Of a DNA stretch of 64,000 nt, positions 34,287 through 58,531 are shown one piece after another. This stretch comes from a virus. Both the position numbers and the translations under genes were made by a program. The number at the start of each line of letters is the position of its first letter. The stretch's first letter is position 1. Where the stretch lies: positions 1 to 64,000 of the IMG/VR virus record IMGVR_UViG_3300036846_000738, one strand, 5' to 3'. Below the pieces are notes generated by a model. It searched no databases. It saw nothing but the letters and a program-made list of their open reading frames with translations, and was not told the origin of the DNA.

Positions 34287-35646
34287 CGCTGTAGTCCTTT
34301 GCCGAAGTGGGCGGCTGTGGCAGCTTTGGCGGCGGCTTCTCTGTCGCGGCGCCCGGTGGTTGAGGTGGTGCGCCCGGCGACGCTGGTGCCGCGGGAATAG
34401 CGGCGGCAGCCGACAGCGGAACCACCTGTTGCTGGACGCGGGGTTCGTCACCAAACTTGACCTCGTCCAAACTCTCCGAGGCCCGCGCTTCATTCGGCGA
34501 GAAGATGCCGCCCTGCACCGCGCGCGCCAGACCTTCGATGCGGTCCTTGAATGCAGATCGGAGCAGCGCCTTGGTATCGAACTCGACATACTCGTCGGGC
34601 TGGCCGTCGAGATTGAACAGCAGGCCGAAAGCGTCCTCGATATGATTGAGCGCAAAGCCGAGGCCGGAGGCGACCCACGACTGCATCAGCGCCTCGGTCG
34701 ATCCAAACGGCGCGCCACCAATGCCAAGAATTTGCAGCGGCACCCGGAACGCCAGCGCAATGCGCTGCTCGGTCATCTTCATGACCTCGGCCAGCTCGGC
34801 ATCCTTGGGCGCCGTCGATAGCGGCAATGGTTTGAGCCCCGCCGTCAGGATCGGCGTGCCGCCCTGCTTGAGGCCTTTTGATTGCTCGTCCCAGCGGTCA
34901 CGAACAAACTGCAATTGATCCTTGTCGAGTACGAGGTCGGTGCCGAGCACGAACGAAGGTCTCGCTTGGTTCAAGTAGAACGCAAGCTGTTGCGCTGTCA
35001 TCGCCGTCGACGCCGCGATGTCCTGCAGCGCCGCTCCGACCGGAGTGTCGCCAACGAGTGGGAATGGATAGCGGCGCCGGGTCGCGTTCAGCCTGACATG
35101 CAGCACGTCGCGCTGCGGCACCAGCAGTTGTTCCTTGACCTGCCTGTCGATGACGGAATTGCCGCCGAGATAATAAAATACATCGCCGGTGACCGCGATC
35201 TGCGGATGACTCTGGCGCGGGTCCATCAGATGCAATTCATCGATCTCAAAGCGGTCGTTGCGCAGGGCGAGCGCGTAGGCATTGCCTTCCGAGTACAGCG
35301 AGCGCGTCAGGTTCAGCATGAAGTCTGACGGCGACTGGTAGCTGTTCGGGTAGCGCAGGATGCGCGCCAGCGCCGAATTGGTGACGCGATCGCGACCGTT
35401 CTTCTTGTTCAGCCGCCAATGATCACCGGGGCACATCGCCACCGTCTGCGCATAGGCCGACAAACACGCCTCGACCATCGCCGAGCTATCGAGCCCGGTT
35501 TGAGGGACGGTGCCTTCCTGCCACCAATTCCACGGCGATCCGGCGGGCAACCACCCGCCGGTCACCGGGAGATAGTAGGGGCCGGGATTGACCTCGCCCT
35601 CGCCCTTGGTCAGGAGCGGGCGAAATATCCGCGACAGCAAACCCAT
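34219..35646 (-). CDS. Portal protein (HK97-like)
   Basis: [30 protein letters not shown]. Confidence 0.9.
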
Positions 35647-35964
35647 TCAGGTTGTCGTCGCTGGCTTTGGCGTCGAGGCTCGCGTGGCGTAGCCGCCACT
35701 CGACGGCTTCGCCGCTTCCGACTGCCGGGTGACCTGCATCCGAAATTCCGGCTGCGGTCCGCTGCCGTCATCCTCGTGCTGTTCAAACGGCACGCCGAGC
35801 GCAGCGAGATCGTTTTCCTCCTGCGTCGGGGTTGGCCTTCCCTGATGGGCATAGGCCTCCTCGACTGACTTGGCTTTTGCTTCGGCGCTTTGCTTGACCT
35901 GCTCTTTGGCGTGCGCGGTCGCCTGCTCACGGTTCTGTGCATTTGGGTCTTTTGGGTCCGCCAT
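35647..35964 (-). CDS. Hypothetical protein between capsid and portal
   Basis: AAGGA RBS; PTPTQEENDLAALG. Confidence 0.65.
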   Translation of the reverse strand: MADPKDPNAQNREQATAHAKEQVKQSAEAKAKSVEEAYAHQGRPTPTQEENDLAALGVPFEQHEDDGSGPQPEFRMQVTRQSEAAKPSSGGYATRASTPKPATTT

Positions 35965-36040
35965 AGGATGTTCCTTTTCGGGTGTCTGTAGAGTTGAAGG
36001 GGTGAAGCCCGGCGCGCGGCCGGGCTTCGGGTTTGTCAAC

Positions 36041-38275
36041 TCACCAAGTAACGCCAGCGATCCACGCCACGACGCCGGAGCGCCGCATCGTCCAGTTCAG
36101 CGGCAGAATGAGCCGCAACGCCAGCGAGTCGGTCTGGAACATCGACATGGCCGGAGCTGCTACAACTGGCGGAGTGCCAACCGAGGCGAGCTGCAGCGGG
36201 TTGGTGTCTTCCATGTGCAGCGTGGCCTGATCACTGATCTCGAACCGCGGAGCATCGCCCGCGACCGAGACGTAGTCGGCCGCATCAAGACAGATCACTG
36301 TGCCAAGCGGCACCGTGCCGGACTGGATCAGCGGCCTGCCATTCAGTTTGCCCGCGTTGATTTCCTCCCGGAACGGGAACAGCCCGGACGGATTCGGCGG
36401 CTGAATGAACCCGATCGAAAGCGCCTGTTGCGGGTTCATGATGAAGACCATGTTGCGGATGTTTCCGTTGGTGGCCGTCAGAATGGCGCCGCTCAGTTGC
36501 TTGAGATCGCCGACGAGGGCAGCGAAGGCCCCGTTCGTGATCGGCGTGGGTGTCAGACCAGACACGCCGTTGCGCAGACCGGGCGGCCGAATCGCGGTCG
36601 CTGGGTTGACATCGAGCAAGACGGTGTCGATCGAGACCGCGGTGTCCTGCTGAATGGCGTCACGCAGCAGTCCTTCAATGGCGGGCACAGAGTGCTCATC
36701 CATCTCCCTAGTCCACGTCGATATGACGGCCATTTTCTTGGGCGTCAGCGTCTGGCTGGCGAACCCCGCCTGACGCACCGGAATCGGCGCGCCTTCGCCG
36801 ACGAACGATCCGGCGACGGTGGGGGTCAGATTGCGGGTCGGAATGATGATCCGACCATTGCGCCCGAAGCTGAGCTTCAGCCCCAGCGCCGACAGCGACG
36901 GGAAAACCGAAGCCGGGAGCAGGGTCGGCATCAGATCGGTGACAATCTGCTGCACCAGTTCCGCGGCCCAGCCCGAGACCGTGGTCATCGCCGGAGCGGA
37001 TGCCGCTTTCAGGGTCAGGTCGCAAACCGCCTTGGTGGCTTCGTCGTCGCCATAGATTTTCTGGCGGGCTTCGTCGATCGAGACGTTCATCGAGCGCGCC
37101 ATCGCGCGAACGGTGCCCGCCCGAACCAGAAACTCAAGCGGCTCCAACTTCTTCGGCGGCAGACTGAACGGCCGACGCTCGCCGTTCCGGAGGACGACGC
37201 TGTGGGTCGGCTGATGCTCATCGTCTTCGATGGATTTCGCCGCCCGGAGTTCGGATTGCTTCAGCGTGGTGTAGAGTTCGTCCTGATCGGCAATCCTCTT
37301 GTTGATTTCCTTGGTGGTTTCGAGATCGGCGTCGGTGACGTTGGCATCGTCAACCGCTTCCAGATGCGCCATCAACTGATCGCGCAATTGGACTAGCCGC
37401 TGTTCGCATTCCTGTATTCTTTTCGTGAGGGGTGACATTGTCCTGTTCTTTCTGACAGGAGACGTTTCGGCTTGCCCGCCGTTCGAACCGCGGCGACCGA
37501 CGACGCTTAGGTCTTTTTTGTTGCCTTGCTCGGCAAAGACCCTGTCGATGGTGTCACGGGAGATGTTGAGCGACTTTGCAATCGCTAATGCATTCGGATT
37601 GGCCGGGATCGCGACCAGTGAGGTCTCGACCAGTTCGGTTCGCTTGAAGCGCAGACCGTCGCCGTTCTTGGTCAGCGGCTCGGATTGCTTCGGCACAAAA
37701 CCGACCGACACGGCGCGCAGCACGTTCTGCTCGACCAGCGAGATGATCTCGTTGATCCGGGCCGACGTTCCTTTCTTGGCGAGCTGCAGATGGCCGCGCA
37801 GTGCGCCGTTGACGGTCCGCAAATTGCGCCATGTGCCGATCGGGAAATCGCTGCGGTGATTAAACAGCGCCACCGGGTTTTTCTTGAAATTTTCCAAATC
37901 CCAACCCTCGGCCTCGATCACATCGCCCATCCGATCCGGCGTCGCGTCGGACAACACAAATTCGAGACCGTTGCCTTCGGAGACGTGGGTCTTGTGCAGC
38001 ACCGCGCGGGCGCCAGTGCGCTCCTCCCATGCCAGTTGGCAGGCGTCCTCGTCGCCATCTTCGGCCATGCAACGATCCATGAAGTCCTCTTGGCTTTCGT
38101 CATCTTCCGGCGTGCATTGCTTGGTCAGGGCCTTGTCCTTGTTGCGCCAGATGTCGAGACAGATCGCGACCGCCTGATCCTGCGGACGCTTGCTGTCGCC
38201 GGTGCCGATCATCTCGGGCACACACCTCGCGCTGAACTCTGATTGGCTTTCGCCCGGCTTCGGTTTCATTGGCAT
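36041..38275 (-). CDS. Prohead protease-major capsid protein fusion (HK97 fold)
   Basis: DRMGDVI, NPVALFNH, SVGF, ETSLVAIPAN protease motifs, then coiled coil and VGEGAPIP...SMFQTDSLALR capsid motifs. Confidence 0.92.
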   Translation of the reverse strand: MPMKPKPGESQSEFSARCVPEMIGTGDSKRPQDQAVAICLDIWRNKDKALTKQCTPEDDESQEDFMDRCMAEDGDEDACQLAWEERTGARAVLHKTHVSEGNGLEFVLSDATPDRMGDVIEAEGWDLENFKKNPVALFNHRSDFPIGTWRNLRTVNGALRGHLQLAKKGTSARINEIISLVEQNVLRAVSVGFVPKQSEPLTKNGDGLRFKRTELVETSLVAIPANPNALAIAKSLNISRDTIDRVFAEQGNKKDLSVVGRRGSNGGQAETSPVRKNRTMSPLTKRIQECEQRLVQLRDQLMAHLEAVDDANVTDADLETTKEINKRIADQDELYTTLKQSELRAAKSIEDDEHQPTHSVVLRNGERRPFSLPPKKLEPLEFLVRAGTVRAMARSMNVSIDEARQKIYGDDEATKAVCDLTLKAASAPAMTTVSGWAAELVQQIVTDLMPTLLPASVFPSLSALGLKLSFGRNGRIIIPTRNLTPTVAGSFVGEGAPIPVRQAGFASQTLTPKKMAVISTWTREMDEHSVPAIEGLLRDAIQQDTAVSIDTVLLDVNPATAIRPPGLRNGVSGLTPTPITNGAFAALVGDLKQLSGAILTATNGNIRNMVFIMNPQQALSIGFIQPPNPSGLFPFREEINAGKLNGRPLIQSGTVPLGTVICLDAADYVSVAGDAPRFEISDQATLHMEDTNPLQLASVGTPPVVAAPAMSMFQTDSLALRLILPLNWTMRRSGVVAWIAGVTW

Positions 38276-38326
38276 CGCAAATTCCTCCACGCTTTCAGTG
38301 GGTTGGTATCATGTGCGAAAAGTCTG

Positions 38327-38369
38327 ATATGACCCCTTGACGTATAGGCCGAAATGGCCTACATCAGGG
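38327..38369 (+). promoter_or_regulatory. Cassette repeat R4
   Basis: TTGACG 38337-38342, 17 bp, TACATC; TAGGCC-GAAAT-GGCCTA. Confidence 0.85.
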
Positions 38370-38384
38370 TTGAAAGGAAACCTG

Positions 38385-39182
38385 ATGACGCTGTTCAATC
38401 GCCACGGCCAAGAACATCACGGCCCGCACGCGCTCGACGCCAAGGGCGCCGCCTACATCGTTCGCGCCCGGCTGTGCAGGCGGTGCGGTGGCGCTGGCGG
38501 CTCCGAGGCTTGGCGCCACACCGGCTACACCTGCTACGATTGCGGTGGCCGCGGGTCCTGCGGCACTGAAACCGTCAAGCTCTACTCGGCCGAGCAACTG
38601 GCGAAGCTGAACGCCCGCAAGGCCAAGGCGGACGCCAAGCGCGCCGCCGCCGCCAAGGCCAAGGCCGACAAGGCCGCCGCGGAAGCCGCGGCCAATGCGG
38701 AAGCCTTCCGCGCCGCGCACGCCGAGCTGATCGCCAAGTCGGCGCCTCACATGGCCAACGAGTTCATCGGCGACGTGATGGGCCGGGCGCTGGCGAAAAA
38801 CGACATCAGCGAAAAACAGGAGGCCGCGGTCCTCGCTGCGGTTGAGCGGATCGAGGCGCGGGCGGTCGTGGCCGCCGCATCCAACCATGTCGGCACGGTC
38901 GGCAAGCGGTTCGATGTCGCGGTCACGGTCGACCGGGTCGCCTCTTTCGCCCGGCCCGCGTTCCGCGGCTACGGCGCCATGGAAACGGTCTGGATCGTCA
39001 CCATGCGCGACGCCGACGGCAACGCGATCGTCACCAAGTCCTCGGTGTTCTCTCCGGAAAAGGGCGAGCGGTTCACGCTGCGCGCCACGGTCAAGGAGCA
39101 CTCCGAGTACAACGGCGAAAAGCAAACCATCGTCAACCGGGCAAAGATTATTGAGCCCGCAACAGGAGGAAGTGTGAAGTGA
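38385..39182 (+). CDS. Zn-finger plus OB-fold-like protein
   Basis: CRRCGG...CYDCGG; C-terminal VGTVGKR...ATVKEHSEYNGEKQT. Confidence 0.75.
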   Translation: MTLFNRHGQEHHGPHALDAKGAAYIVRARLCRRCGGAGGSEAWRHTGYTCYDCGGRGSCGTETVKLYSAEQLAKLNARKAKADAKRAAAAKAKADKAAAEAAANAEAFRAAHAELIAKSAPHMANEFIGDVMGRALAKNDISEKQEAAVLAAVERIEARAVVAAASNHVGTVGKRFDVAVTVDRVASFARPAFRGYGAMETVWIVTMRDADGNAIVTKSSVFSPEKGERFTLRATVKEHSEYNGEKQTIVNRAKIIEPATGGSVK

Positions 39183-39472
39183 TCAAGGTCAAATATTCCA
39201 GCGTCGACGGCTACCGCAAAGTGAAGTCATTCAAGACGCTCAAGGGCGCGCGCAAGTACGCGCAATTTATGATCGGCAAGAACCCCGACATGGGCAGCAG
39301 CTATGCCGTCAGCAACGACGGCATCGGCAAAATCGAAATCGGCGCCGGGGCCGCGCTGGCCGATTTGTTCGGCGACGAGCGCGAGGGCGAAGAGGCTCCC
39401 GGTTTCGACAGCCCGCGGGCGCCGGAATGGACTGGCTTCGATAGTTCCGAAATCGACATCACGGAACCGTGA
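39179..39472 (+). CDS. Hypothetical protein
   Basis: AGGAGG RBS; stop abuts R5. Confidence 0.7.
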   Translation: MIKVKYSSVDGYRKVKSFKTLKGARKYAQFMIGKNPDMGSSYAVSNDGIGKIEIGAGAALADLFGDEREGEEAPGFDSPRAPEWTGFDSSEIDITEP

Positions 39473-39473
39473 T

Positions 39474-39548
39474 ATACGTCCTCTTGACGTATAGGCCGAA
39501 ATGGCCTACATTAGGCCTGTTGGGAACGGGCGATTAGCGCCGGTTCCC
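39474..39548 (+). promoter_or_regulatory. Cassette repeat R5 plus leader hairpin
   Basis: TTGACG 39484-39489, TACATT 39507-39512; hairpin GGGAAC...GTTCCC 39522-39548. Confidence 0.85.
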
Positions 39549-39562
39549 GGAAAGCCCCAACC

Positions 39563-39721
39563 ATGAAACACGCCGTGATGACCCTCGCCGCCCTCGAAGC
39601 CGCGCTCTACGCGCTCTACGCCACGGCCAGCCTTGAAGAGGCGGTGCTCGCCTACCGCGCCGAGCTGGCCCACGAATACCGCGCCCGGACCGGAACTTGG
39701 TTTGCTGCCCGTTATTACTGA
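39563..39721 (+). CDS. 52-aa cassette protein (not in ORF track)
   Basis: MKHAVMTLAALEAALYALY...FAARYY; stop overlaps R6. Confidence 0.6.
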   Translation: MKHAVMTLAALEAALYALYATASLEEAVLAYRAELAHEYRARTGTWFAARYY

Positions 39722-39791
39722 TACGACCTCTTGACATATAGGCCATAATGGCCTACATTGAACCTGTAGGGATCGCGATGGTCGCGGCCCC
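39721..39791 (+). promoter_or_regulatory. Cassette repeat R6 plus leader hairpin
   Basis: TTGACA 39731-39736, TACATT 39754-39759; GGGATCGCGA-TGG-TCGCGGCCC. Confidence 0.85.
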
Positions 39792-39810
39792 GGAAAAACG
39801 AAAGGACCCC

Positions 39811-40251
39811 ATGTCCGAGTATGGAAGCCTCCGCGAAAAGATCGCGGCAGAATCGGAAGCCCGCAAGATCAAGTACGCGGCTTTCGAGGTGGCTTACGCA
39901 AAGGCCGCCGCGGCGGGCAAGGCCGCCGGTGAGGCCGCGATGCCTTGCCCGATGATCGTCCAACAGCGCGCGTCGCCGCTCAATGACAACTCGGTGGTGG
40001 TGCAGCAGTGGCGCGTGCCCGAGGGCATGTGCGGCTTTGCTTGGGTCACGGTCTCTCCCGGCAACTGCGCGTTCGCGAATTGGCTCAAGAAGAACAAGTT
40101 CGCCAGCAAGGCCTACGGTGGCGGCGTCCAAATCTGGATCAACGCCTTCAATCAGTCGGTCGAGCGAAAGGAAGCCTGCGCCAACGCGATGGCTGCGGTG
40201 CTGCGCGAAGAACTCGGCGTCAAGGCCTTTAGCGGTTCGCGATTGGACTGA
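39811..40251 (+). CDS. Phage hypothetical protein (CGFAWV...QS.ERKEA.A family)
   Basis: AAGGA RBS; GMCGFAWV, NQSVERKEACANA, C-terminal SRLD. Confidence 0.8.
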   Translation: MSEYGSLREKIAAESEARKIKYAAFEVAYAKAAAAGKAAGEAAMPCPMIVQQRASPLNDNSVVVQQWRVPEGMCGFAWVTVSPGNCAFANWLKKNKFASKAYGGGVQIWINAFNQSVERKEACANAMAAVLREELGVKAFSGSRLD

Positions 40252-40284
40252 CCCGACCCGTGGGGCGGCGGCGGCGAGCCCACC

Positions 40285-40365
40285 TAAAGCCTCGCCTGCC
40301 TAGCCTCGCCAAAACCCGGCCGAGCCCCGCCGCGCCTATCCGCACCTTGCCTCCGCCATCTTGCA
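40285..40365 (-). repeat. Short copy of the GG-pentamer array in the opposite orientation
   Basis: gcctc gcct gccta gcctc gccaa ... gcccc gccgc gccta ... acctt gcctc. Confidence 0.6.
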
Positions 40366-40393
40366 CGAAAGCTCGTAGAAACTGAAAGGAAAA

Positions 40394-40741
40394 ATGAAAA
40401 TGAAAGTCTACTCAAGCCCGATCCCGGCGCCGGAATATGACTACGCCAATTACGACCGCGACAAGGTCATGGCGGCAGAGGACGAGCATAGCGTCAAGCT
40501 CAAGGCGTGGCTGCTGGCCAACGGCTACAACGGCAAGCGCACCGGCGAGATCGCCAGCTTCCCGATCGCCGACGGCTACGCCTCCTACATGCTCGGCGAC
40601 GGCAAGAAGTCCTGCCTGATCCACCTGCCCTATGGCGACGCCTACAACTATCCCGACGTGCGGTTCCTGCCGAAGGCCGAAGTGCTCAAGCGGATCGACT
40701 CCAGCAAGCGCATGGCGGCCCTGTTTGCCAAAAAATCGTAA
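40394..40741 (+). CDS. Hypothetical protein
   Basis: AAGGA RBS; FPIADGYASY...HLPYGDAY; stop overlaps R7. Confidence 0.75.
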   Translation: MKMKVYSSPIPAPEYDYANYDRDKVMAAEDEHSVKLKAWLLANGYNGKRTGEIASFPIADGYASYMLGDGKKSCLIHLPYGDAYNYPDVRFLPKAEVLKRIDSSKRMAALFAKKS

Positions 40742-40811
40742 TACGACCTCTTGACGTATAGGCCACAATGGCCTAGCTTGAACTTGCAGGGACCGCGGTA
40801 GTCGCGGTTCC
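40741..40811 (+). promoter_or_regulatory. Cassette repeat R7 plus leader hairpin
   Basis: TTGACG 40751-40756, TAGCTT 40774-40779; GGGACCGCGG-TAG-TCGCGGTTCC. Confidence 0.85.
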
Positions 40812-40832
40812 GGGAACCTCGAAAGGACCCGA

Positions 40833-41036
40833 ATGTCTTGGAAATCGGAAGTGATCGCTGATAGCAGCGGCAAGTGGGCAGGCAACGCGCTGCGCTTCGC
40901 CACCAAGGAAGAGGCAGAGCGCTACGTCGGCGACCTCTCAATGCGCTGGCTGGCGGTGCGCGAAACCCGCGCGGTCGAGAGTGACGAGCCGGTCAACTAC
41001 GCCATCGTCGAAAACGTCCTCACGGCGCTGAGCTGA
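40833..41036 (+). CDS. Hypothetical protein
   Basis: AAGGA RBS; W.GNALRFATKEEAE. Confidence 0.75.
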   Translation: MSWKSEVIADSSGKWAGNALRFATKEEAERYVGDLSMRWLAVRETRAVESDEPVNYAIVENVLTALS

Positions 41037-41039
41037 TCG

Positions 41040-41234
41040 ATGGCCAGAAAACCGAGTGCAAAGAAACTGGCAGAGGCGCGGATCAACCGCGCCGTCGTCG
41101 GGTTCCAAATCCCGATGCTGTCAATCCCGAAACTGTATCGGGCGCTGGAAGCGGCGATCGCTCTCAACATGTCTGACGCTGAATTGAAGGCGGTGGTCGC
41201 CGCCTTCCCCCGCGTGATCACACTGGAGCAATGA
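41040..41234 (+). CDS. Hypothetical protein
   Basis: Operon packing. Confidence 0.6.
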   Translation: MARKPSAKKLAEARINRAVVGFQIPMLSIPKLYRALEAAIALNMSDAELKAVVAAFPRVITLEQ

Positions 41235-41235
41235 A

Positions 41236-41859
41236 ATGGGCTGGACCTTCTATCACAAGCCGAAGGGCATCAAGGCGATCGACGCGATCACGCGCGAGCT
41301 AGGCCCCGCCTTTATGGCACAGCGTTTCGTCGTCGCCTCGGCCACGATCAACGCGGTCCATATCGTCGCGAAATATCATGAGCCGGACAGCAAGGTCTAT
41401 GTCCCCGACGCCGACGGCATGGTGCGCGCAATCCTCGTGTTCAGCATCCGGAGCGTGCCAAAGGCCAAGGACGGCCACAACTTCGGCTACAAGGACATGG
41501 ATGAAGCCATGGGTCCTTACGGCTGCGAGTGCGCGCCCTCGATCATCGCCGCGGCCTCGCCGCTGCGCGATCCGATCGGACCGGAGCCGGAGTATTCGAG
41601 CCTGCGATCGGCGCGGGACTACCGCGAGCGCTCGCTGGCGATGTCCAAGGCCAAGGCCGCCAAGCGCGGCTTGAAGGTTGGCGCCAAGATCAAGCTGCCG
41701 AAACCGCTCTCGTTCTCCGGAATCCTGCTCGACGAGTTCGTCGTCGATCGCTGCCGGGTGCGCGGCCGGAAGGGCCAATCGACCGTGTTCCGGTCGGTCA
41801 AGACCGGCGGCCTGTACGGCCTGTCCGCCCGCGATCTGGCGGAGGCGGTGGTCTCGTGA
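41236..41859 (+). CDS. DUF6927-like protein
   Basis: MGW start; FGYKDMDEAMGP...C.P motif. Confidence 0.65.
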   Translation: MGWTFYHKPKGIKAIDAITRELGPAFMAQRFVVASATINAVHIVAKYHEPDSKVYVPDADGMVRAILVFSIRSVPKAKDGHNFGYKDMDEAMGPYGCECAPSIIAAASPLRDPIGPEPEYSSLRSARDYRERSLAMSKAKAAKRGLKVGAKIKLPKPLSFSGILLDEFVVDRCRVRGRKGQSTVFRSVKTGGLYGLSARDLAEAVVS

Positions 41860-42059
41860 CCGACAATCTCGAAACCGAACTTGAAGCGCTGATCGACCGT
41901 CACGGCCTGACGCACGTTGTCAACACCCTGTCGGTGATCTGCGCCGAGAAGGCCGACCACCTGATCGGCAATTGGCAGGACAAGAACGCTGCGAAAGTTT
42001 GGGCGGCTGACAGCCGCGTGCTCGACAAGGCCGCCCGCGCCATCCGATCCGATGGCTAA
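41856..42059 (+). CDS. Hypothetical protein
   Basis: GTGA overlap; LEALIDRHGL...ICAEKADH; stop overlaps R8. Confidence 0.7.
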   Translation: MTDNLETELEALIDRHGLTHVVNTLSVICAEKADHLIGNWQDKNAAKVWAADSRVLDKAARAIRSDG

Positions 42060-42101
42060 TACGACCCCTTGACATATAGGCCGGAATGGCCTATATTGAG
42101 G
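42059..42101 (+). promoter_or_regulatory. Cassette repeat R8
   Basis: TTGACA 42069-42074, TATATT 42092-42097; 9-bp arms ATATAGGCC/GGCCTATAT. Confidence 0.88.
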
Positions 42102-42119
42102 TTGTCAGGAAAGTAAGCC

Positions 42120-42650
42120 ATGACCCACTACCTAGTTACCAAAGCCCTCGCGTTCGCCACCAAGGCGCACGAGGGCATGTTCCGTAAATGGTCCGGCGAG
42201 CCCTACATTGAGCATCCCAAGCGGGTTGCCGTGCGGCTGTCGGCGCTGGGCTTCGGCCCCGAGGTGATCGCCGCCGCCTTCCTGCACGACGTGGTCGAGG
42301 ATACCGCGACGACCGGCGCCGAGCTGGCCGCCGCGTTCGGCCCGGCCGTCGCCGCGCTGGTCGCGGAGGTCACCAAGCCCATCGTCCCCGGTGGCAACCG
42401 GGCCGCCCGAAAGGCCGCCTTCCGGGCGCATCTGGCGGGCTCGTCCTACGCTGGCGCCTCGATCAAGCTGTCCGACGAGATCGACAACTCAAGCGACGTC
42501 GCGGAGATGAACCCGCGCTTTGCCAAGGTCTATCTGCCCGAAATGTGCGCGGAACTTGCGGTGCTGGGCCACGGTCATCCCGAGCTGGTCACCAAGCTGA
42601 CCGCCAACATCACCGCCGGATTGGCCAAGATCGCCGCTATGACGGCTTGA
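42120..42650 (+). CDS. HD-domain protein, small alarmone hydrolase (SpoT/Mesh1-like)
   Basis: AH...R..SGEPYIEHP, AAFLHDVVEDT, FG..VA.LV.EVT, IKLSD..DN. Confidence 0.85.
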   Translation: MTHYLVTKALAFATKAHEGMFRKWSGEPYIEHPKRVAVRLSALGFGPEVIAAAFLHDVVEDTATTGAELAAAFGPAVAALVAEVTKPIVPGGNRAARKAAFRAHLAGSSYAGASIKLSDEIDNSSDVAEMNPRFAKVYLPEMCAELAVLGHGHPELVTKLTANITAGLAKIAAMTA

Positions 42651-42679
42651 CATATAGGCCACAATGGCCTACATCGGGA
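42637..42679 (+). promoter_or_regulatory. Cassette repeat R9
   Basis: TTGACA 42647-42652 (contains the HD gene stop), TACATC 42670-42675. Confidence 0.85.
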
Positions 42680-42700
42680 GCGCAAGCAGAAAGGACCCCC

Positions 42701-42925
42701 ATGCCACGATATTACGACGACGACTATTACGACCGGGACTATGACAGCGAAATCGAGTTCGCCGATCCCGGCGGCCGGTCTGCCTTGCGCGCCGCCAGCA
42801 AGACCAACCCGCGCAACCTGCCCTGCCCCAACTGCGGCGCGAAGAACCGGCTGACGCCAGCCGATCGCGCGCTGGGCTACCAGTGCGATGCCTGCGCCGA
42901 TCGCGCCGAACGGGGACACGACTGA
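42701..42925 (+). CDS. Small zinc-ribbon protein
   Basis: AAGGA RBS; CPNC...CDAC. Confidence 0.75.
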   Translation: MPRYYDDDYYDRDYDSEIEFADPGGRSALRAASKTNPRNLPCPNCGAKNRLTPADRALGYQCDACADRAERGHD

Positions 42926-42926
42926 C

Positions 42927-43154
42927 ATGAGCGGTAAAATCAAAACCATCAAGCTGTCCTACCCGACGCCGAACTGGGCTCGTGATTTCGATCCCAAGGC
43001 GCCCGGCGCCGAGCCCAACGTCTACACAATTTTGCAGGTCACCGACTCGATCGAGTTCTCGCCCAAGCAGCAACTGCGCAAGGCACAGGTCGAAAGCCTG
43101 TGCGCCAGTCGCGAGTGGAAGGTGACCATCGTCCCGCCGCCGCCGAAAATATGA
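42927..43154 (+). CDS. Hypothetical protein
   Basis: Operon packing; stop lies within R10. Confidence 0.65.
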   Translation: MSGKIKTIKLSYPTPNWARDFDPKAPGAEPNVYTILQVTDSIEFSPKQQLRKAQVESLCASREWKVTIVPPPPKI

Positions 43155-43191
43155 CCCCTTGACATATAGGCCACAATGGCCTATATCAGGA
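43149..43191 (+). promoter_or_regulatory. Cassette repeat R10
   Basis: TTGACA 43159-43164, TATATC 43182-43187; ATATAGGCC-ACAAT-GGCCTATAT. Confidence 0.88.
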
Positions 43192-43212
43192 TTGAAAGAG
43201 AGAAGGACCCGA

Positions 43213-43572
43213 ATGAAGATTTTCACCAAAGACGTTGTGGCGCGACTGGCCGCCAATGGTCGCGCCACCCGACTGGCGCAGCAAGCTGGCGAGAGCGAGC
43301 CGGACCACAATCCGGTGCTCAAGGTGTTCAACCCGGCCGGAGCCGCCACATGGCTGCTGACCGAGTCCGACCCCGGTGATCCGGATTGCCTGTTCGGCCT
43401 CTGCGACCTCGGCATGGGCTCGCCGGAGCTGGGCAACGTGCTGCGCTCCGAGCTGGAAACCGCCAAGGGCCGCTTCGGTCTCGGCATGGAGCGCGACCGC
43501 TGGTTCAAGGCGGATAAGCCGCTGTCGGCCTACACCGCCGACGCCAGCCGCAAGCAACGGATCGACGCATAA
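43213..43572 (+). CDS. DUF2958-like protein
   Basis: PVLKVFNPAGAATWLLTE...LFGLCDLGMG.PELG...ERDRWF. Confidence 0.85.
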   Translation: MKIFTKDVVARLAANGRATRLAQQAGESEPDHNPVLKVFNPAGAATWLLTESDPGDPDCLFGLCDLGMGSPELGNVLRSELETAKGRFGLGMERDRWFKADKPLSAYTADASRKQRIDA

Positions 43573-43796
43573 TGGTCCCGAGCAAAACACTTGAAATCGT
43601 CGGCACCGGTCAGGCTGCCGCTCAAATCAGGTTCAAGGCGCACGAGAGCTACGCGCTCGACGGCATCGACTTGAACGACCTCGCCATCCTCGCCATCCGG
43701 CTCAACTCCCGCATGGTCGATGGCGACGAATTACGCGACTGGCAGAACAGGATCAACCTGATGCTGTCGAACGTCGCAACACAGGAAGGCAAATAA
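43572..43796 (+). CDS. Hypothetical protein
   Basis: TAATG overlap. Confidence 0.6.
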   Translation: MVPSKTLEIVGTGQAAAQIRFKAHESYALDGIDLNDLAILAIRLNSRMVDGDELRDWQNRINLMLSNVATQEGK

Positions 43797-44159
43797 ATGG
43801 AACTGCGCGAACCAAACTACCACGAGTTCACCCATCTGCCGCAGTGGACCCAAGCCATTTGGATCGGCAAGTCAGGCGACGGCAAGCTCGCGAATGAGTT
43901 CGACCCCTACAAGTGGTCGGGCGACAAGCCGCCGCCCGCGATCGGCGAAAAGATCAAGGTGCTGTGCAACGGCTTGGGCAAGGGCACGGTGCTGCGCTAC
44001 TTCGCCGAATATGGCTGGCTCGGCATGATCGTCCAGTTCGACAAGCCGCCGAAATGGTATCGGCAGCAGAACGGCGACAAGCCCGGCCACGTTTTCGGTA
44101 TCGACCTCAACCCCCGCAGCAAACTGCTGCCTCAACCTGCAAAGGAATCCCGTGTCTGA
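43797..44159 (+). CDS. Hypothetical protein (SH3-like beta barrel?)
   Basis: WSG..PPPAIGEKIKV..NGLGKGTV. Confidence 0.65.
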   Translation: MELREPNYHEFTHLPQWTQAIWIGKSGDGKLANEFDPYKWSGDKPPPAIGEKIKVLCNGLGKGTVLRYFAEYGWLGMIVQFDKPPKWYRQQNGDKPGHVFGIDLNPRSKLLPQPAKESRV

Positions 44160-44715
44160 ATATCTCTCCTGTGCCGAGACCGCCAAGCTGGTGCGTGCAG
44201 CACTCAAGAAGGCCTTCCCCGGCATCAAGTTTTCGGTGCGCTCACACGTCTACTCTGGCGGTGCCTCGATCAATGTCCGCTGGACCGACGGTCCATCGAG
44301 CAAGGCGGTCAAGGCGATGGCCGGGGCCTACTCCGGCGGCAACTTCGACGGCATGATCGACATGGCGTTTTCGAACTCGTCGTGGCTGATGCCGGACGGA
44401 TCGGCGGCGCTTGCTTCCTCGCCGGGCTCCACTGGCTCGATGGGCGTCTATGCGCCGTATGACCACAAGGCCCCGGCGCCCGGCGCCCGCAAGGTCCGCT
44501 TCGGAGCGGACTTCGTGTTCTGCGACAAGGACTGGTCGATCGAGACCTACACCACCGCGGCGAAAAAGGTCTGCGCCGATTACGGCGTCGAGCTGCCGGA
44601 GATCAAAATCAGCGGCGGCCCCTACATCGCCAACGTCTGGAGCATCAAGGTGCCCAACGCCGACACCGATCTCGGCACCCTGATCAACCGCGAATTGCAG
44701 CAGGAGAACGCATGA
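44152..44715 (+). CDS. LPD29-like (large polyvalent protein-associated) domain protein
   Basis: ETAKLVRAALKKAFPGIKFSVRS..YSGG.SI.V.WTDGP...FDGMID. Confidence 0.8.
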   Translation: MSEYLSCAETAKLVRAALKKAFPGIKFSVRSHVYSGGASINVRWTDGPSSKAVKAMAGAYSGGNFDGMIDMAFSNSSWLMPDGSAALASSPGSTGSMGVYAPYDHKAPAPGARKVRFGADFVFCDKDWSIETYTTAAKKVCADYGVELPEIKISGGPYIANVWSIKVPNADTDLGTLINRELQQENA

Positions 44716-45239
44716 CGCCGAACAATGACTACGGGCTGTTGATCGAGCCGATCAACCGCTACGGCGCCGAATATATCGATGCGCGCGTCGTGCGCCGCGA
44801 CCCGAAATACGAACACCCGATCGGCTGCCCCAGCGACGGCGATGTTTTCTTGGGCTACGGCACGCCGAAACATTTGCTTGGCTTGGTGCTGGACGGGCTC
44901 GGCATGTACGGTTTCGTCACCGACGGCAACGATCCCACCTTCATCGGCACTGAGATCGAATTTCGCGAGACCTACGGCATCAACGAACCCAAGCTGCGGC
45001 GGATGCTGAAAACGATGCGGCGCGTCAACGCCCGAATCGCCAAGGATCAAGCGCGCGAGCCGGGCGACAAATTCACGTCACTGGCCGCGGCGCTAAAGCT
45101 CTCGTTCGCGGTCGAGCGGATCGCCCGGCGCGGCGATGGCCGTGACTGGCGCTGGATGTCAATCGCCGAAGGCCGCAACCGCTACCGCGCCCTGATCGAC
45201 ACCGCGGTCGCCGCCGCCGTGTCGCGGAAGATCGCTTAA
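44712..45239 (+). CDS. Hypothetical protein
   Basis: AGGAG RBS, ATGA overlap. Confidence 0.7.
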   Translation: MTPNNDYGLLIEPINRYGAEYIDARVVRRDPKYEHPIGCPSDGDVFLGYGTPKHLLGLVLDGLGMYGFVTDGNDPTFIGTEIEFRETYGINEPKLRRMLKTMRRVNARIAKDQAREPGDKFTSLAAALKLSFAVERIARRGDGRDWRWMSIAEGRNRYRALIDTAVAAAVSRKIA

Positions 45240-45257
45240 CCCATGGAGAATACAGGA

Positions 45258-45614
45258 ATGACCAAATTCAAAATAATGCTGGCGGCAGCTTTGCTCGCTG
45301 CCAGCTCGCTCCACGCGCTTTCTGCTTCGGAGAAAGAGGAAGAGGTCGCCAGCCGATCTGCAGCAATCCTGCTACTGGCCATCAACAAGTGCGGTCCAAG
45401 CAAGTTCGACAGTCTTCGCGCGATGGACCAACTCGACACCGTGTACAGCGCGACCGGCGTCAACCCGGCCAACTATCCCGAGGGCGAGTGGACGCGGAAG
45501 ATTTTCTTCACCATGAGCCAGACGGATTTCCTGCGGAAAGTTCGCGACGACGATCCGCCGATGGTGAAAGCCTTCTGTAGTTCCATCGCCGAAAGGTTTC
45601 CAAACAAAGACTGA
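45258..45614 (+). CDS. Secreted/periplasmic protein with two Cys
   Basis: Signal peptide MTKFKIMLAAALLAASSLHALSA. Confidence 0.65.
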   Translation: MTKFKIMLAAALLAASSLHALSASEKEEEVASRSAAILLLAINKCGPSKFDSLRAMDQLDTVYSATGVNPANYPEGEWTRKIFFTMSQTDFLRKVRDDDPPMVKAFCSSIAERFPNKD

Positions 45615-45705
45615 CAACACGGGCGCCAACCGCCGGGGCGGGTTGATCTCAGGATCGCCCGCCCCAAACCTTATTTGCCACAACCCCTTAACCCACGGCC
45701 CATTC

Positions 45706-45734
45706 TTGTCTTTTTTGACAGAATGGCCTAGATA
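45706..45734 (+). promoter_or_regulatory. Promoter of the HTH gene carrying the right operator half-site
   Basis: TTGTCT-17 bp-TAGATA with AATGGCCTA in the same register as R1-R10; ATG lies 8 nt after the -10 box (probably leaderless). Confidence 0.65.
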
Positions 45735-45742
45735 AGTGATTC

Positions 45743-45946
45743 ATGATGACCGCCGAACAATATCGAGCCGCGCTAGAGCGACTGCAAATGACTCAGGTCG
45801 CCGCTGGCGAGCTGTTTCGCGTTGGTGCGCGAACCTCCCGGCGCTGGGCGCTGGACGAGGCTCGCGTTCCCTTCGCCGTAGCCGCATTGCTGCATTTAAT
45901 GCTAAAGAAGCGACTCAAGCCGCGGGATTTACTCGCGCTGGAGTAA
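45743..45946 (+). CDS. Small HTH regulator, candidate cassette repressor 2
   Basis: MTAEQYRAALERLQMTQVAAGELFRVGARTSRRWALDEARVPFAVAALLHL. Confidence 0.8.
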   Translation: MMTAEQYRAALERLQMTQVAAGELFRVGARTSRRWALDEARVPFAVAALLHLMLKKRLKPRDLLALE

Positions 45947-45953
45947 GCACACC

Positions 45954-46127
45954 ATGGCCAAGGAAAAAGAGGCCGCTCCCAAAATTCCGCCGACTGAGAT
46001 TCGCGACGGCAACGGCAACCTGATTCCGCCGGAGCATTTCGATGACGATCAGCGCCCGACTGGCGACGTCGACAAGTCGCCCGGCTCGCTCTACGACCAT
46101 CTGGTCCAGCGCGACAAGAAAAAGTAA
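45954..46127 (+). CDS. 57-aa hypothetical protein (not in ORF track)
   Basis: GGAG RBS; MAKEKEAAPKIPP...QRDKKK; stop directly abuts the convergent zeta-like gene. Confidence 0.6.
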   Translation: MAKEKEAAPKIPPTEIRDGNGNLIPPEHFDDDQRPTGDVDKSPGSLYDHLVQRDKKK

Positions 46128-47258
46128 TCACTTGCTCCGCGCGTGCAGCTTCGGCGACGAGCCCATGTTGTCGTAGACTTCCCAGTAATCCATGTCGTTG
46201 CGGTGACTGTCGAAGGTGTGTTCGTTGCTCACCGAACTCAGGGAATATTCCGGCGCCACGAACCGGCCCTTGCCGTTCTTCTCGTTGCCGTGGACGAAGC
46301 GCCCCAGTGCGCGCTCGGCGGCGGTCGCGGGACTGGCGTACATGTAGTGGCCTGAAATCTTGTAGCCCGCCGCCTTGTACTGCGCGATCCGCTTGGCGAG
46401 CGAGGTGTTGCTTTTCAGCGTCGCGTCGACGATGACGTTCAACTTGTTGTCGCGCGCGTACTGTTCCATCACCTCGCCGACGTGGCTCGCTTCCTCGTGC
46501 AGCAGCGAGGCGTTCCAGCCCTTGTATTCCGGCAGGCTTTCCTTGACGTCGTCGTTGTTGATGTACGCCGCCTTGCTGGCATCGACGGTGCCATTTTTGC
46601 CGGTGAACCAGCCCTTGCCGGAGCCGCCCCGGCCGCCAAGAATGTAGAGCGTTGGCTTCTCGCCCGCCGCTGGCGCCGCCGCCTTGACCACTTCCGGCGA
46701 CATCAGCTTGTCGACGATCTGCCGGTGAACCGGCAGACGGTCCGGCGCCCAGTGCCCGTTCGGCAACTTGTAGCCGCCCGCGCTTTGCTGACCGTCGGTC
46801 GGGAAGTCTTCGGACAATTTCTGGCGTGCCGCGGCGTCCTGCTCGCGGGAGCCCGGCACTTTCGCGTAGAGATCATCGAGCGTCACATCCTCGATCTTCA
46901 GCAGCGACGACGCCGAGGTCGGATCGCTGGCATGATCCTCACCGCCTCCGCCACCACCATCGCCGCTACTGAACTGGCCACCTTGCGGGCTGCCGCCGGG
47001 CTCGTGATGCGGATTGAACTTTTGCAGCAGCGCCTGCGACCGGCTCTTGGTGCGCGCCCATTGGCTCTTGAGCCGGGCCGCTTTCTGTTCGGCCTGCTGT
47101 TCGGCGAGCCACTTCGCGCGGTTGCGCGCGCGAATCGGCGTCATGATCTTTTGGTCGATCGGATAGTCGACCGGGCCGATGATCGCCGCGTGCAGATCGG
47201 CGTCCTGCATTGTGCCGTCCTCGTCGAGATAGAAAAATTCCTGACCTTTAGGCGGCAT
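46128..47258 (-). CDS. Zeta-toxin-like P-loop kinase with internal GGQF motif
   Basis: GGRGGSGKG Walker A, INNDDVKESLP, HEEAS, NVIVDATL, RALGR...GRFV; AGGAG RBS. Confidence 0.8.
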   Translation of the reverse strand: MPPKGQEFFYLDEDGTMQDADLHAAIIGPVDYPIDQKIMTPIRARNRAKWLAEQQAEQKAARLKSQWARTKSRSQALLQKFNPHHEPGGSPQGGQFSSGDGGGGGGEDHASDPTSASSLLKIEDVTLDDLYAKVPGSREQDAAARQKLSEDFPTDGQQSAGGYKLPNGHWAPDRLPVHRQIVDKLMSPEVVKAAAPAAGEKPTLYILGGRGGSGKGWFTGKNGTVDASKAAYINNDDVKESLPEYKGWNASLLHEEASHVGEVMEQYARDNKLNVIVDATLKSNTSLAKRIAQYKAAGYKISGHYMYASPATAAERALGRFVHGNEKNGKGRFVAPEYSLSSVSNEHTFDSHRNDMDYWEVYDNMGSSPKLHARSK

Positions 47259-48834
47259 GCTGTCTCCTGCCGACATACTGATCGAAGCGCTTCATGGACT
47301 CCTTGTCCTTCAGATCGAGCACGCCATCCCAGCTCTTGCCCAGCAACAGCTCCTTGCCGCGGGCGGAGTCGGCAATCTTCCAGATCGATTTCGGGTCGCT
47401 GGAGCGCACCGCGGCCAGCAACGGATCGGCTTCAGCCTTCGGCAGCTCCAGTTGCTCCGGCTCTTCCGGCGGCTCAATCGCAATGTCGGCCATGCCGTAG
47501 TCGCGGGCGTGACGCAGCCTCTCGCTGTCATCCATGCTGTCCCAGTATTCGTCCTGATATTCGCTGACGCTGTCCGCCAGATAGCTCGGCGCGTCTATCC
47601 GGGAAGCCTTGTCCTCGGCTTCCTTGTCGAAGGCGGCGATCAGGCGCTTCTCAATTCGCTTGCGCATGTCTTCGGTCAGGCGCTGCGATGGGTCCTCCGG
47701 CTCGATGCCCGGCAAGGTGCCTTGACTCGGATCGTAGCCGACCGGCTCCTTCAGCATGTTGTCGTCGAAGCCGATGTCCGGATCATCCTCGCCGTCGCCC
47801 CTGCGTGAATCAAACGTCAGCTCAACAGCATCGTACAATTGCCTGTTGGTGTACGGGATCGGCGGCTGGCCTTTGTCCTCGCGATATTGCCGCGCGCCGT
47901 CGAGCGCTTCGTTGACCCACGCCGGGACGTCTGCGGTGCTGACTTGGTCGTTGGTGAACTCATCGGCCAGCTCGCGCTTGGCGTCATCCTTGGCCTGTCC
48001 GCTGTCGCGCCAGTTTTGCTCCTCGCTCCTCAAGAACTCATCGTGGCTTTCGCGCATCCACCGATCGCGAACGTCGGACTGCACGTCGCTCGTCAGCATG
48101 TCCCAATCATCGGCCTCGATGACATTATCGCGTGCTGAGCTGCTGCTGCTGCTTTCTCCCGTCAACTTTCGCTCCAGCCCACGCCGCAGCTCCGCCCACG
48201 CCGCCGCCTCGGGCACATAGCCGTACTTCGCCCACGCATAACCGCCGACGTCGATATTGGCGAAGACCTTGACCTTCTCGACGCCAAGCTCTCGGTAGGT
48301 TTCGACGTTGCCCGCGAGCAGGTTCTTGCCGATGTCGGAGCCGCGCGTCGATTTGTCGAGCGCGAAGTAGGCGCTCTTCGCCACCTTGTTGTCGAGATCG
48401 ATCTCGCGGGCGAAGCTGCCGACCGCCGTGCCCGCGTCGGTGCGGATCGAGCCGGTGATCTCGATCGCCGAGCCGCTGCCACTGAGCTTCATCGTACCGT
48501 CGAGGCCGCCCATGAAACTCTTCTTGAACTCCGCGGGGTCTTCGCCGACCTTGTCGTTCCACTTGTCGATGAACGGCTCGATATTGGAGCTGATCATCGA
48601 CAGCTCGACGTCGGCCTTTTCGAAATCCTCCCGCTTGACCTTTTTCTTGCCCTTCGGCTTCGCGGTCGATGTCGCGCCGCCGCCGCCTTCACCGAACTGG
48701 CCGCCGTCCGGGCCGCCTGCGGGCACGCGCGGATGCTTGCCCTCGTCCCATTCTTTCTGCAGCAGTCGGCGCGATCTTGCCTTGGCAATCTGGAAGCGCT
48801 GCGCGGTGCTGAGCTGGGTCTCGTCAAGCCGCAT
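47248..48834 (-). CDS. GNAT-like protein with N-terminal HPR...GGQF motif and large acidic insert
   Basis: WDEGKHPRVPAGGPDGGQF; RGSDIGKNLL...ANIDVGGYAWAKYGY. Confidence 0.65.
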   Translation of the reverse strand: MRLDETQLSTAQRFQIAKARSRRLLQKEWDEGKHPRVPAGGPDGGQFGEGGGGATSTAKPKGKKKVKREDFEKADVELSMISSNIEPFIDKWNDKVGEDPAEFKKSFMGGLDGTMKLSGSGSAIEITGSIRTDAGTAVGSFAREIDLDNKVAKSAYFALDKSTRGSDIGKNLLAGNVETYRELGVEKVKVFANIDVGGYAWAKYGYVPEAAAWAELRRGLERKLTGESSSSSSARDNVIEADDWDMLTSDVQSDVRDRWMRESHDEFLRSEEQNWRDSGQAKDDAKRELADEFTNDQVSTADVPAWVNEALDGARQYREDKGQPPIPYTNRQLYDAVELTFDSRRGDGEDDPDIGFDDNMLKEPVGYDPSQGTLPGIEPEDPSQRLTEDMRKRIEKRLIAAFDKEAEDKASRIDAPSYLADSVSEYQDEYWDSMDDSERLRHARDYGMADIAIEPPEEPEQLELPKAEADPLLAAVRSSDPKSIWKIADSARGKELLLGKSWDGVLDLKDKESMKRFDQYVGRRQHAA

Positions 48835-58139: not shown

Positions 58140-58420
58140 CGGGAATATCATACCGCCGGAAAAAACCGCGGGTCCCCCCCGCCCCTGATGGGGCTTGGAC
58201 GGGCTTGGCGAGGCCGCTGGTGCGGTAATCCCCCTGTTCTGGCACTTTCCCTGCGCTCCCGGCACCCCAACCCATCCACGGGCTTCCTATTGGGTCCCCC
58301 CTTAAACCTCATAAGTGCTTGATGCCATTGCCTTATCCGCTCTCGACCTCGACCAGTTAAGTGCTTGATATGATTGGCTTATTCGGCGTTCCGACGAGGC
58401 CATATCGGCCTAGAATGCCC
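58140..58420. other. Candidate cos/packaging region with IHF-consensus sites
   Basis: Intergenic between HNH and terS; TAAGTGCTTGAT occurs twice (~58313, ~58358), and its reverse complement matches WATCAANNNNTTR. Confidence 0.5.
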
Positions 58421-58531
58421 TTCTCTTGGCGCGTTGTTTCAGGTTGTATCGTGGGGAACGCTATTCTCACCACACACACGGAGGTTGCATTGAGCGGGTG
58501 TGTGGTTGTGGGTTTAGGACTGCAGGAACAG

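Follow-up and report, generated by a model that had tools for sequence, protein, structure and literature searches.

Promoter-like repeats with tandem dyads in a soil phage genome: candidate operators for small helix-turn-helix repressors

An array of small genes, set off in groups by copies of one ~45-bp repeat, lies head to head with the capsid gene of an uncultured phage, and the question that this locus raises is what the repeat is: a promoter, an operator, an RNA hairpin, a recombination site or several of these at once. The phage, whose DNA derives from soil metagenomes, is IMG/VR record IMGVR_UViG_3300036846_000738, 76,615 bp long and rated 100% complete; the window, by which we mean the whole 64-kb stretch analysed, comprises bases 1-64000 of this record, and all positions below are counted along it. 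We favour the reading, to which we assign a probability of about 0.65, that the repeats are host-type early promoters with two superimposed operators, that small XRE-type helix-turn-helix (HTH) repressors of the phage would bind these operators, and that the genes next to the capsid gene form an inserted accessory block.

A pattern search of the whole record recovered ten copies of the element, all on the + strand, and the same pattern gave 0 matches in 100 dinucleotide shuffles. The TTGAC boxes start at 3556, 4265, 4494, 38337, 39484, 39731, 40751, 42069, 42647 and 43159 and fall into two arrays, with three copies within 3546-4529 and seven within 38327-43194; the final 12.6 kb of the 76.6-kb record holds no copy. 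A first-pass annotation made from the sequence alone had listed the seven copies R4-R10, at coordinates equal to these starts minus 10, and the search recovered all seven together with the three at 3546-4529. Its description of a near-consensus -35 box, a 17-bp spacer with the dyad TAGGCC-N5-GGCCTA and a -10-like hexamer proved accurate, as did its statement that every copy heads one to six genes, the counts for R4-R10 being 2, 1, 2, 4, 1, 2 and 6. The element lies 17-51 nt from the start codon, and a Shine-Dalgarno (SD) sequence precedes each start codon. With the upstream and downstream dyads of the element designated O_A and O_B, the ten units are as follows.

3546-3591, + strand: R1 unit, with O_A, -35 box, O_B with right arm GACCTA, -10 box and TG start; heads g5-g6
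4255-4300, + strand: R2 unit, O_B right arm GCCCTA; heads g7
4484-4529, + strand: R3 unit, O_B right arm GCCCTA; heads g8-g25, g11 included
38327-38372, + strand: R4 unit; heads g56 (38385-39182) and g57 (39179-39472)
39474-39519, + strand: R5 unit, with a perfect O_A (39475-39491) and a perfect O_B (39492-39508); heads g58 (39563-39721)
39721-39766, + strand: R6 unit; heads g59 (39811-40251) and g60 (40394-40741)
40741-40786, + strand: R7 unit; heads g61 (40833-41036), g62 (41040-41234), g63 (41236-41859) and g64 (41856-42059)
42059-42104, + strand: R8 unit; heads g65 alone
42637-42682, + strand: R9 unit, with the g65 stop codon TGA inside its -35 box; heads g66 (42701-42925, zinc-ribbon-like) and g67 (42927-43154)
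43149-43194, + strand: R10 unit; heads g68 (43213-43572), g69, g70, g71 (44152-44715), g72 (44712-45239) and g73 (45258-45614)

To define the element more closely, 60 non-redundant copies were gathered from 11 related genomes with a search pattern that preset the core positions. The set conserves the -35 box and both dyad arms and, beyond the search pattern, an upstream box aTAyGnCC, a C before TTGAC, the terminal T of the -10 box and a TG 7-8 nt downstream. The published sigma-70 consensus of Sinorhizobium meliloti is CTTGAC-N17-CTATAT (PMC2873474), and the element, read as CTTGAC-N17-CTAnnT, matches it; the fit is thus to a rhizobial promoter and not only to one of Escherichia coli. The conserved TG is placed where a pyrimidine/purine transcription start is expected. 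Each repeat is therefore predicted to be a strong early promoter for the host housekeeping sigma factor, with its start at the conserved G 7-8 nt past the -10 box (39519 in R5).

Superimposed on this promoter are two dyads of 17 bp each. O_B, TAGGCC-N5-GGCCTA, spans the spacer and the -10 box and was detected in 10/10 copies. O_A, TAYGNC-N5-GACRTA, spans the -35 box, the upstream box and the -35 hexamer together forming the dyad; searched for as TACGNC-N5-GNCGTA, it was found at no more than one mismatch in 8 of the 10 copies. Because O_A directly adjoins O_B, the unit consists of two tandem dyads with the promoter laid across both. The core of O_B, GGCC-N5-GGCC (38345-43183), is the recognition sequence of SfiI-type enzymes; this match is probably a coincidence because the flanking TA bases and the GACC and GCCC variants are conserved as well.

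The same architecture recurs in relatives, which were collected as 80 related viral contigs retrieved with the capsid protein. A TTG-anchored repeat was searched for in the more distant of them, and most lack one; the variant motifs in distant relatives were found only by reading intergenic regions. Other lineages hold the architecture and swap the dyad type, to TAGGAC, TAGGGAC, TAGGGC or TACGNC. Among more distant contigs with a block, TAGGAC occurs in L027, TAGGGAC in L030, and TACGNC in L040 and L054. Viral contigs reached only via the HTH protein described below (L123, L124, L128, L139, L156 and L159) carry tandem-dyad promoters whose arms are TAGGGC or mixed; in two of these, L139 and L156, the -35 box falls inside the N5 of O_A, and O_A and O_B share 2 bp. 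The capsid-proximal unit of two relatives has an extra full O_B-type dyad in the 5' untranslated region (UTR) just past the start site (L021, ~3530-3560, - strand; L045, ~9880-9910, - strand).

Candidate binders of the dyads are two small HTH proteins of the phage, listed here with the promoter of the first.

45743-45946, + strand: 67-aa XRE/Cro-type HTH protein, recognition helix RTSRRWA; penultimate gene of the block and candidate O_B-binding repressor
5444-5701, + strand: g11, 85-aa HTH paralogue, recognition helix RQCQRIA; predicted, by covariation, to bind O_A (TACGNC-type)
45706-45734, + strand: P_reg, promoter of the 67-aa HTH gene, TTGTCT-N17-TAGATA, with an imperfect O_B (right arm AATGGCCTA intact) and no O_A

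Wherever the sequence of a relative extends to the distal end of the block, the 67-aa protein is conserved there. It was placed with 'HTH cro/C1' clusters in a protein atlas (0.97, TM 0.89), and its AlphaFold2 model has a predicted local distance difference test score (pLDDT) of 90. Its best structural match in the Protein Data Bank (PDB) is the HTH domain of Aca2 (TMq 0.80, root mean square deviation 0.9 A, E 8.5e-3); by sequence, a PDB profile search gave Aca2 at E 0.18, which is not significant. A homodimer model of the protein scored 0.76 compared with 0.00 for the best control, a mark reached by 20/30 solved homodimers and 1/23 monomers; the runs share at least 95% of contacts, with a partner pLDDT of 92. 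This pass may partly reflect likeness because HTH dimers resemble solved complexes.

What ties these proteins to the dyads is covariation between recognition helix and dyad type. At 50 loci with an RT[SA]RRW helix there are 101 TAGGNC dyads compared with 10-16 for scrambled controls, and at 4 loci with an RQxQR or RHxQR helix there are 0 TAGGNC and 10 TACGNC dyads, L054 and L158 having been checked by eye. Both classes are encoded in this genome (G000) and in the relatives G002 and G003. Because helix and dyad covary and each unit holds one dyad of each type, we assign open reading frame (ORF) 45743-45946 to O_B and g11 to O_A; both proteins are likely binders, and the g11 assignment is the weaker of the two. 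The first-pass annotation had supposed that one repressor silences the array, and this is at odds with the two different dyads in each unit and the two paralogues with different recognition helices.

Dimers of these small proteins on O_A and O_B would block RNA polymerase. The 67-aa protein would be made from P_reg, a weak promoter, and its mRNA is probably leaderless since the ATG lies 8 nt past the -10 box; with a weak leaderless promoter that carries an imperfect dyad, the protein is probably autoregulated, and it may be present in the lysogen. A leaderless, imperfect-dyad promoter of this layout was found at 9 of 42 non-redundant HTH homologues versus a background of 2.6%. In two contigs from metagenome-assembled genomes, the HTH gene and a divergent strong unit are separated by three dyads, an arrangement like that of a classical immunity region. 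The paralogue g11, in turn, would be made from the early operon headed by R3. A CI-type cleavable repressor was rejected, no S24 peptidase domain being found anywhere in the genome.

The dyads could still be operators read by some other factor, such as g23, a different phage protein or a host regulator, with the small HTH proteins controlling something else. In favour of g23 is that it is the sole protein in the genome above the Pfam HTH_3 cut-off. However, homologues of g23 are absent from G001, G005 and G004 (the last 82% complete, with 12 dyads in two arrays), whereas the RTSRRW-class HTH is present in all five related records. Moreover, the promoter of the small HTH gene itself carries a dyad, and it is the helix of this protein class that covaries with dyad type. 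We therefore consider a different reader unlikely, while granting it a real share of the probability.

A second alternative dispenses with a protein reader. The palindrome would then act as an RNA or single-stranded DNA stem-loop that terminates or attenuates the upstream unit, as in the PeSL (promoter/stem-loop) cassettes of T4-type phages (Arbiol et al. 2010, PMC2839356; Comeau et al. 2014, PMC4122927). The order of parts here, stop codon, sigma-70 boxes with a stem-loop between or over them, SD and ATG, is that of published PeSLs (PMC2839356), and the dyad folds as RNA at -9 to -11.5 kcal/mol in R4-R10. In R1-R3, however, the fold is weak (-3 to -4 kcal/mol), and the dyad is not followed by a U tract. 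Changes in the dyad arms are rarely compensated: at pair 12-20, 25 break the pair, 1 is compensatory and 2 give G-U. The dyad is kept as sequence both within and between genomes, and its type switches as a block between lineages along with the HTH helix. Together, the sequence-conserved arms, the uncompensated changes, the weak folds of R1-R3 and the missing U tract favour protein recognition over a terminator role, and we regard a stem-loop without a reader as quite improbable.

The layout of the block bears on how the promoters would work together. The features at its end and flanks are as follows.

36041-38275, - strand: fusion gene for prohead protease and major capsid protein (HK97-type; phrog_617, 4e-80), the left flank of the block
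45636-45667, + strand: GC-rich hairpin with a weak T tail, after the last unit
45954-46127, + strand: g75, a small conserved gene that follows the HTH gene in relatives; end of the block
46128-47258, - strand: g76, a zeta-toxin/AAA_33-domain protein that matches a large 'minor head protein' PHROG; right flank, convergent with the block

At six of the seven copies R4-R10 the stop codon of the preceding gene abuts or overlaps the element, leaving no room for terminators between units. Nested transcripts from R4-R10 would thus end at one hairpin near 45650, the structure at 45636-45667 being their likely common terminator. On the other side the block is divergent from the capsid fusion gene, which starts ~50 bp from R4. 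The 5' side of the capsid gene (38276-38326, and the same region of relatives) shows a conserved CTGAAAnCGTGGAGGTTTTC leader/SD stretch only, with no recognisable promoter.

Comparison with the relatives indicates that the block was inserted. In most capsid relatives the genes for the large terminase (TerL), methyltransferase-like and glycosyltransferase-like proteins, the capsid protein, a small protein and the portal are contiguous on one strand, and in at least 30 more distant relatives the capsid gene immediately follows a same-strand TerL, g84, g83 or g77 homologue. Only one clade, of 13 loci with a capsid identity of 67% or more, bears in that position a divergent block with this motif. 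Contiguity in most relatives and a block in one clade point to an insertion into the packaging/head gene string; the contiguous order in the distant relatives bears out the first-pass statement that the + strand block interrupts minus-strand head genes upstream of the capsid gene. The block is thus an accessory-gene region that, in one clade of uncultured temperate myoviruses of Alphaproteobacteria, has come to separate the packaging/head genes from the capsid gene, in divergent orientation. As to the head genes themselves, the order TerL, protease/capsid fusion, small gene and portal, with the portal downstream of the capsid gene, is kept across the whole family (34219-38275; 80 loci). In many distant relatives the g83/g84 homologues are preceded by another, partial capsid-like gene (~32% identity), and in this phage a TPR/glycosyltransferase-9-like gene and a Methyltransf_24 gene sit between TerL and the head genes (54504-56032).

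Gene order within the block was compared after its gene families had been clustered and ordered outward from the capsid gene. A backbone recurs, in which P denotes the promoter element: [P g59 g62 g63], [P g65], g71-g72 and HTH-g75, with variable genes in between. The capsid-proximal unit is absent in two loci and different in almost all others; families g57, x2, x7, g61, g10, g67 and x11 occupy different units in different phages, and in this genome g10 and the g11-class HTH lie in the other array. For junctions whose two flanking families are both present in another genome, adjacency was kept at 138/184 junctions without a promoter versus 18/40 with one (odds ratio 0.27, Fisher p 5e-4; these counts lack phylogenetic independence). 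Between L012 and L018, the closest pair (~80-88% DNA identity), homology stops at the element edge three times, and one difference is a whole unit of promoter plus gene. Gene order in the relatives is therefore not fixed, and the reshuffling of cassettes proposed in the first-pass annotation holds in part: rearrangement is enriched at promoters and homology ends at their edges, yet the backbone is conserved and 59 of 67 lineage-unique genes lie inside units, not directly behind a promoter. The repeated promoters thus appear to be preferred, not exclusive, points of rearrangement.

The elements themselves are more alike within a genome than between genomes. At their variable positions, similarity is 0.556 within genomes versus 0.501 for orthologous copies between genomes, an excess that 0/2000 permutations reached; such a pattern would result if copies convert one another, or if they co-evolve with some factor particular to each genome. 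Over 36000-48000, the contigs of three soil-metagenome DNA runs showed neither excision nor deletion products, these being de Bruijn contigs and hence weak evidence; the contigs of X1 and X2 are identical across the whole block, and X3 gave short, low-depth identical pieces only. Joints and loose ends at 42057-42113 were rejected as recombinants, since they carry the flanks of R1 and R3 and are graph branches at the repeat.

These observations also bear on the possibility that the repeats are site-specific recombination sites, akin to integron attC sites, at which the phage integrase captures and excises cassettes. Short gene units parted by an imperfect palindrome, a tyrosine integrase at 945-2303 and variable gene content would all suit such a system. 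However, the integrase is of an ordinary phage type (phrog_1) and is encoded 36 kb from the array, and the element is a complete promoter 5' of each unit at a fixed spacing to SD and ATG, without a GTTRRRY-type core, whereas an integron has an IntI-type integrase with attI/Pc beside the array and an attC core at the 3' end of each cassette. With backbone order conserved and the metagenome contigs as described, we think recombination sites of this kind very improbable. Hardly credible, finally, is that the repeats are promoters for a phage single-subunit RNA polymerase: their left part, AATACGAC ... TATAGG, resembles the T7 sequence TAATACGACTCACTATAGG, but the spacing between its two blocks exceeds that of T7 promoters by 5 nt, the genome has no RNA_pol (PF00940) match (control genomes gave none either), its large unknown proteins had no RNA_pol match when compared with all of Pfam, and the element fits the host sigma-70 consensus perfectly.

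Several points weigh against the reading of host-type promoters under small HTH repressors. The right arm of O_A is confounded with the -35 hexamer, and C/T in its left arm does not covary with G/A in its right arm. Conservation among the 60 copies is affected at the core positions by their choice through the search pattern, and lack of phylogenetic independence applies to the dyad counts as it does to the junction counts. A g11-class HTH was not found in G001 (62% complete), yet 7/8 promoters there have a TAYG-type O_A; and g23 (10241-10633), another true HTH_3 protein, is a possible binder in this genome. The position of R4, only ~50 bp upstream of the capsid gene, leaves the transcription of the late capsid-to-tail operon unexplained. 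The predominance of lineage-unique genes away from promoters likewise counts against a pure cassette model.

The cargo offers one gene of clear function.

42120-42650, + strand: g65, a small alarmone hydrolase (SAH) with a RelA/SpoT-type HD domain (HD_4 7.6e-16; PDB 4yf1 2.5e-17, with several SAH and MESH1 entries)

In 10/10 genomes that hold it, g65 is a single-gene unit directly behind a promoter. It is conserved across the clade and is a candidate counter to alarmone-based host responses. Domains were also recognised in g71 (LPD29), g68 (DUF2958) and the C-terminal part of g63 (DUF6927). The remaining cargo had no Pfam, PHROG or PADLOC assignment and none of an anti-CRISPR kind, and in PADLOC ten cargo proteins gave no defence-family match. 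An early, host-directed role is therefore plausible for the cargo, but the terms 'immediate-early' and 'anti-host' of the first-pass annotation go further than the alarmone hydrolase, with LPD29 and DUF2958 beside it, allows.

Some units carry a second structural feature downstream of the promoter. R5-R7 and 16 units in relatives have a GC-rich hairpin of 6-11 bp in the 5' leader, and most other units have short unstructured leaders; the mean leader fold, from single-sequence folds, is -13.6 kcal/mol with the hairpin versus -2.8 in the other leaders. The three examples in this genome are as follows.

39522-39548, + strand: R5 leader hairpin, -18.2 kcal/mol, first pair at predicted +4
39769-39791, + strand: R6 leader hairpin; the g59 orthologues of 11 relatives also have a leader fold in this position, built from different stems
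40789-40811, + strand: R7 leader hairpin, -17.0 kcal/mol

The first pair falls at the predicted +4 in 16 of the 19 cases, and the loops often contain UGG (for relatives, see L021:2356-2393 and L023:8829-8866). MAFFT with RNAalifold gave no consensus for the 19 hairpins because their stem lengths differ, and Rfam gave no match at E<=1 within the block. In the simplest reading the hairpin is a 5'-terminal mRNA stabiliser, a role established for E. coli ompA-type leaders; it may also be a protein-binding RNA.

The phage itself encodes a tyrosine integrase, a contractile tail sheath, a portal, a large terminase (56032-57588), a GcrA-like regulator, a RecT/YqaJ pair and an AAA_25 helicase. Because of the integrase, the tail sheath and the other genes encoded, we take it to be a temperate myovirus, most likely of an alphaproteobacterium. 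Its host probably belongs to the Hyphomicrobiales, given the GcrA-like gene and the origin of one contig with the motif in a metagenome-assembled genome of Hyphomicrobiaceae. No isolated phage exceeds 27% identity in the capsid protein, and by megablast the block had no counterpart among 50,697 phage records. The sole other TTGACA-type consensus promoter in the genome, at 71346-71373 (past the window), is placed between divergent genes, upstream of YqaJ/RecT, and carries no dyad, so the recombination module seems to escape the regulon. A lone dyad of the same class, TAGGTC-ACTTT-GACCTA, is found outside both arrays at 59008-59024, between the divergent ORFs 58361-59020 (+ strand) and 59022-59660 (- strand).

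Among described systems, PeSL cassettes come closest in anatomy, and the first-pass remark that the motif was not recognised from any described system was overstated: its anatomy departs from that of a PeSL only in what the palindrome does, and its regulation would be akin to that of Aca proteins and prophage repressors. As with PeSLs, a repeated host sigma-70 early promoter is set against the stop codon of the preceding gene and leads to an SD and ATG, its -35 and -10 boxes have a palindrome between or across them, and copies cluster among small genes of unknown function. In PeSL phages the elements bound indels and replacements; here, junctions at promoters are rearranged more often and some homology ends fall at element edges, but most lineage-unique genes lie inside units. 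In other respects, the phage is an unrelated temperate myovirus (76.6 kb, integrase, HK97-type fusion) and not T4-type; the palindrome is sequence-conserved, lineage-specific and uncompensated, and thus operator-like rather than a terminator; and there are two adjacent dyads with a candidate cognate HTH family.

The regulatory side invites comparison with the acr-aca operon controlled by Aca2 of Pectobacterium phage ZF40 (Birkholz et al. 2019, PMC6765145). Both involve a small dimeric XRE-type HTH protein (the dimer being predicted here) and a strong early promoter whose -35 and -10 boxes are covered by inverted repeats, and in both a regulator is encoded at the far end of the genes that it controls or would control, here ORF 45743, which sits behind the hairpin with a promoter of its own; g11 lies inside the R3 operon. 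Basal expression in the lysogen is known for Aca2 and only proposed here, and the extra 5' UTR dyad of two relatives resembles IR2 of the acrIF8-aca2 leader. In contrast to Aca2, the protein is of 67 aa and has no Aca2 C-terminal domain (no match to Aca2_YdiL, PF08965, at E<=0.05), so that only the HTH domain superposes; there are ten promoters rather than one, a promoter for the regulator behind a terminator, two paralogues and two dyad types; and no anti-CRISPR gene was identified among the cargo with Pfam, PHROG and PADLOC.

In the number of its sites the system is nearer to dispersed-operator regulons. The two-array layout is found also in the relative G004. Prophage regulons of this type are those of P1 C1, of mycobacteriophage L5 gp71 with its 'stoperators' and of the phiC31 CIR sites. 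As in these, a temperate phage has one short operator repeated at many units (ten here, in two arrays), which makes global silencing possible; unlike in these, the operator is built into a full consensus promoter, the dyads are tandem and symmetric, and the candidate repressor is a minimal 67-aa HTH protein, with no S24 domain. CUP repeats, in the leading region of IncN plasmid pKM101, are under ArdK/ArdR and hundreds of base pairs long, and LPD29 and DUF2958 are typical of CUP-like early establishment/anti-restriction regions. The likeness lies in repeated units of promoter plus repressor site before such genes; the CUP system differs in being plasmid-borne and far longer and in having unrelated regulators. 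Four features of the phage are new: a rhizobial consensus promoter overlaid by two tandem dyads, a pair of HTH paralogues, swaps of dyad type between lineages, and insertion of the block upstream of the capsid gene.

A more far-reaching version, which we hold as possible but would bet against as a whole, has the two HTH paralogues and the two dyads act as a distributed CI/Cro-like switch over at least 10 promoters, with one protein made constitutively from a leaderless, self-limited promoter and the other made early from a regulated operon. Lineage swaps of the dyad (TAGGCC, TAGGGC, TAGGAC, TACGNC) together with the helix would then create immunity groups in a large, undescribed family of soil phages, and recombination at the same promoters would shuffle the counter-defence cargo, the alarmone hydrolase for example.

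Few regulatory circuits have been characterised so far in phages of soil Alphaproteobacteria. If the favoured reading of early promoters under small HTH repressors is right, these phages would possess a compact regulatory part list, consisting of a consensus promoter, two 17-bp operators and two repressors of 67-85 aa, and the lineages would provide a natural series of helix/operator pairs for studying HTH specificity and the evolution of phage immunity groups. The PeSL idea, in which a promoter is both a control and a recombination point, would be extended from lytic T4-type to temperate phages. Because the early region is hypervariable and the alarmone hydrolase is its sole conserved interpretable gene, the block is a reasonable place in which to seek new counter-defence genes.

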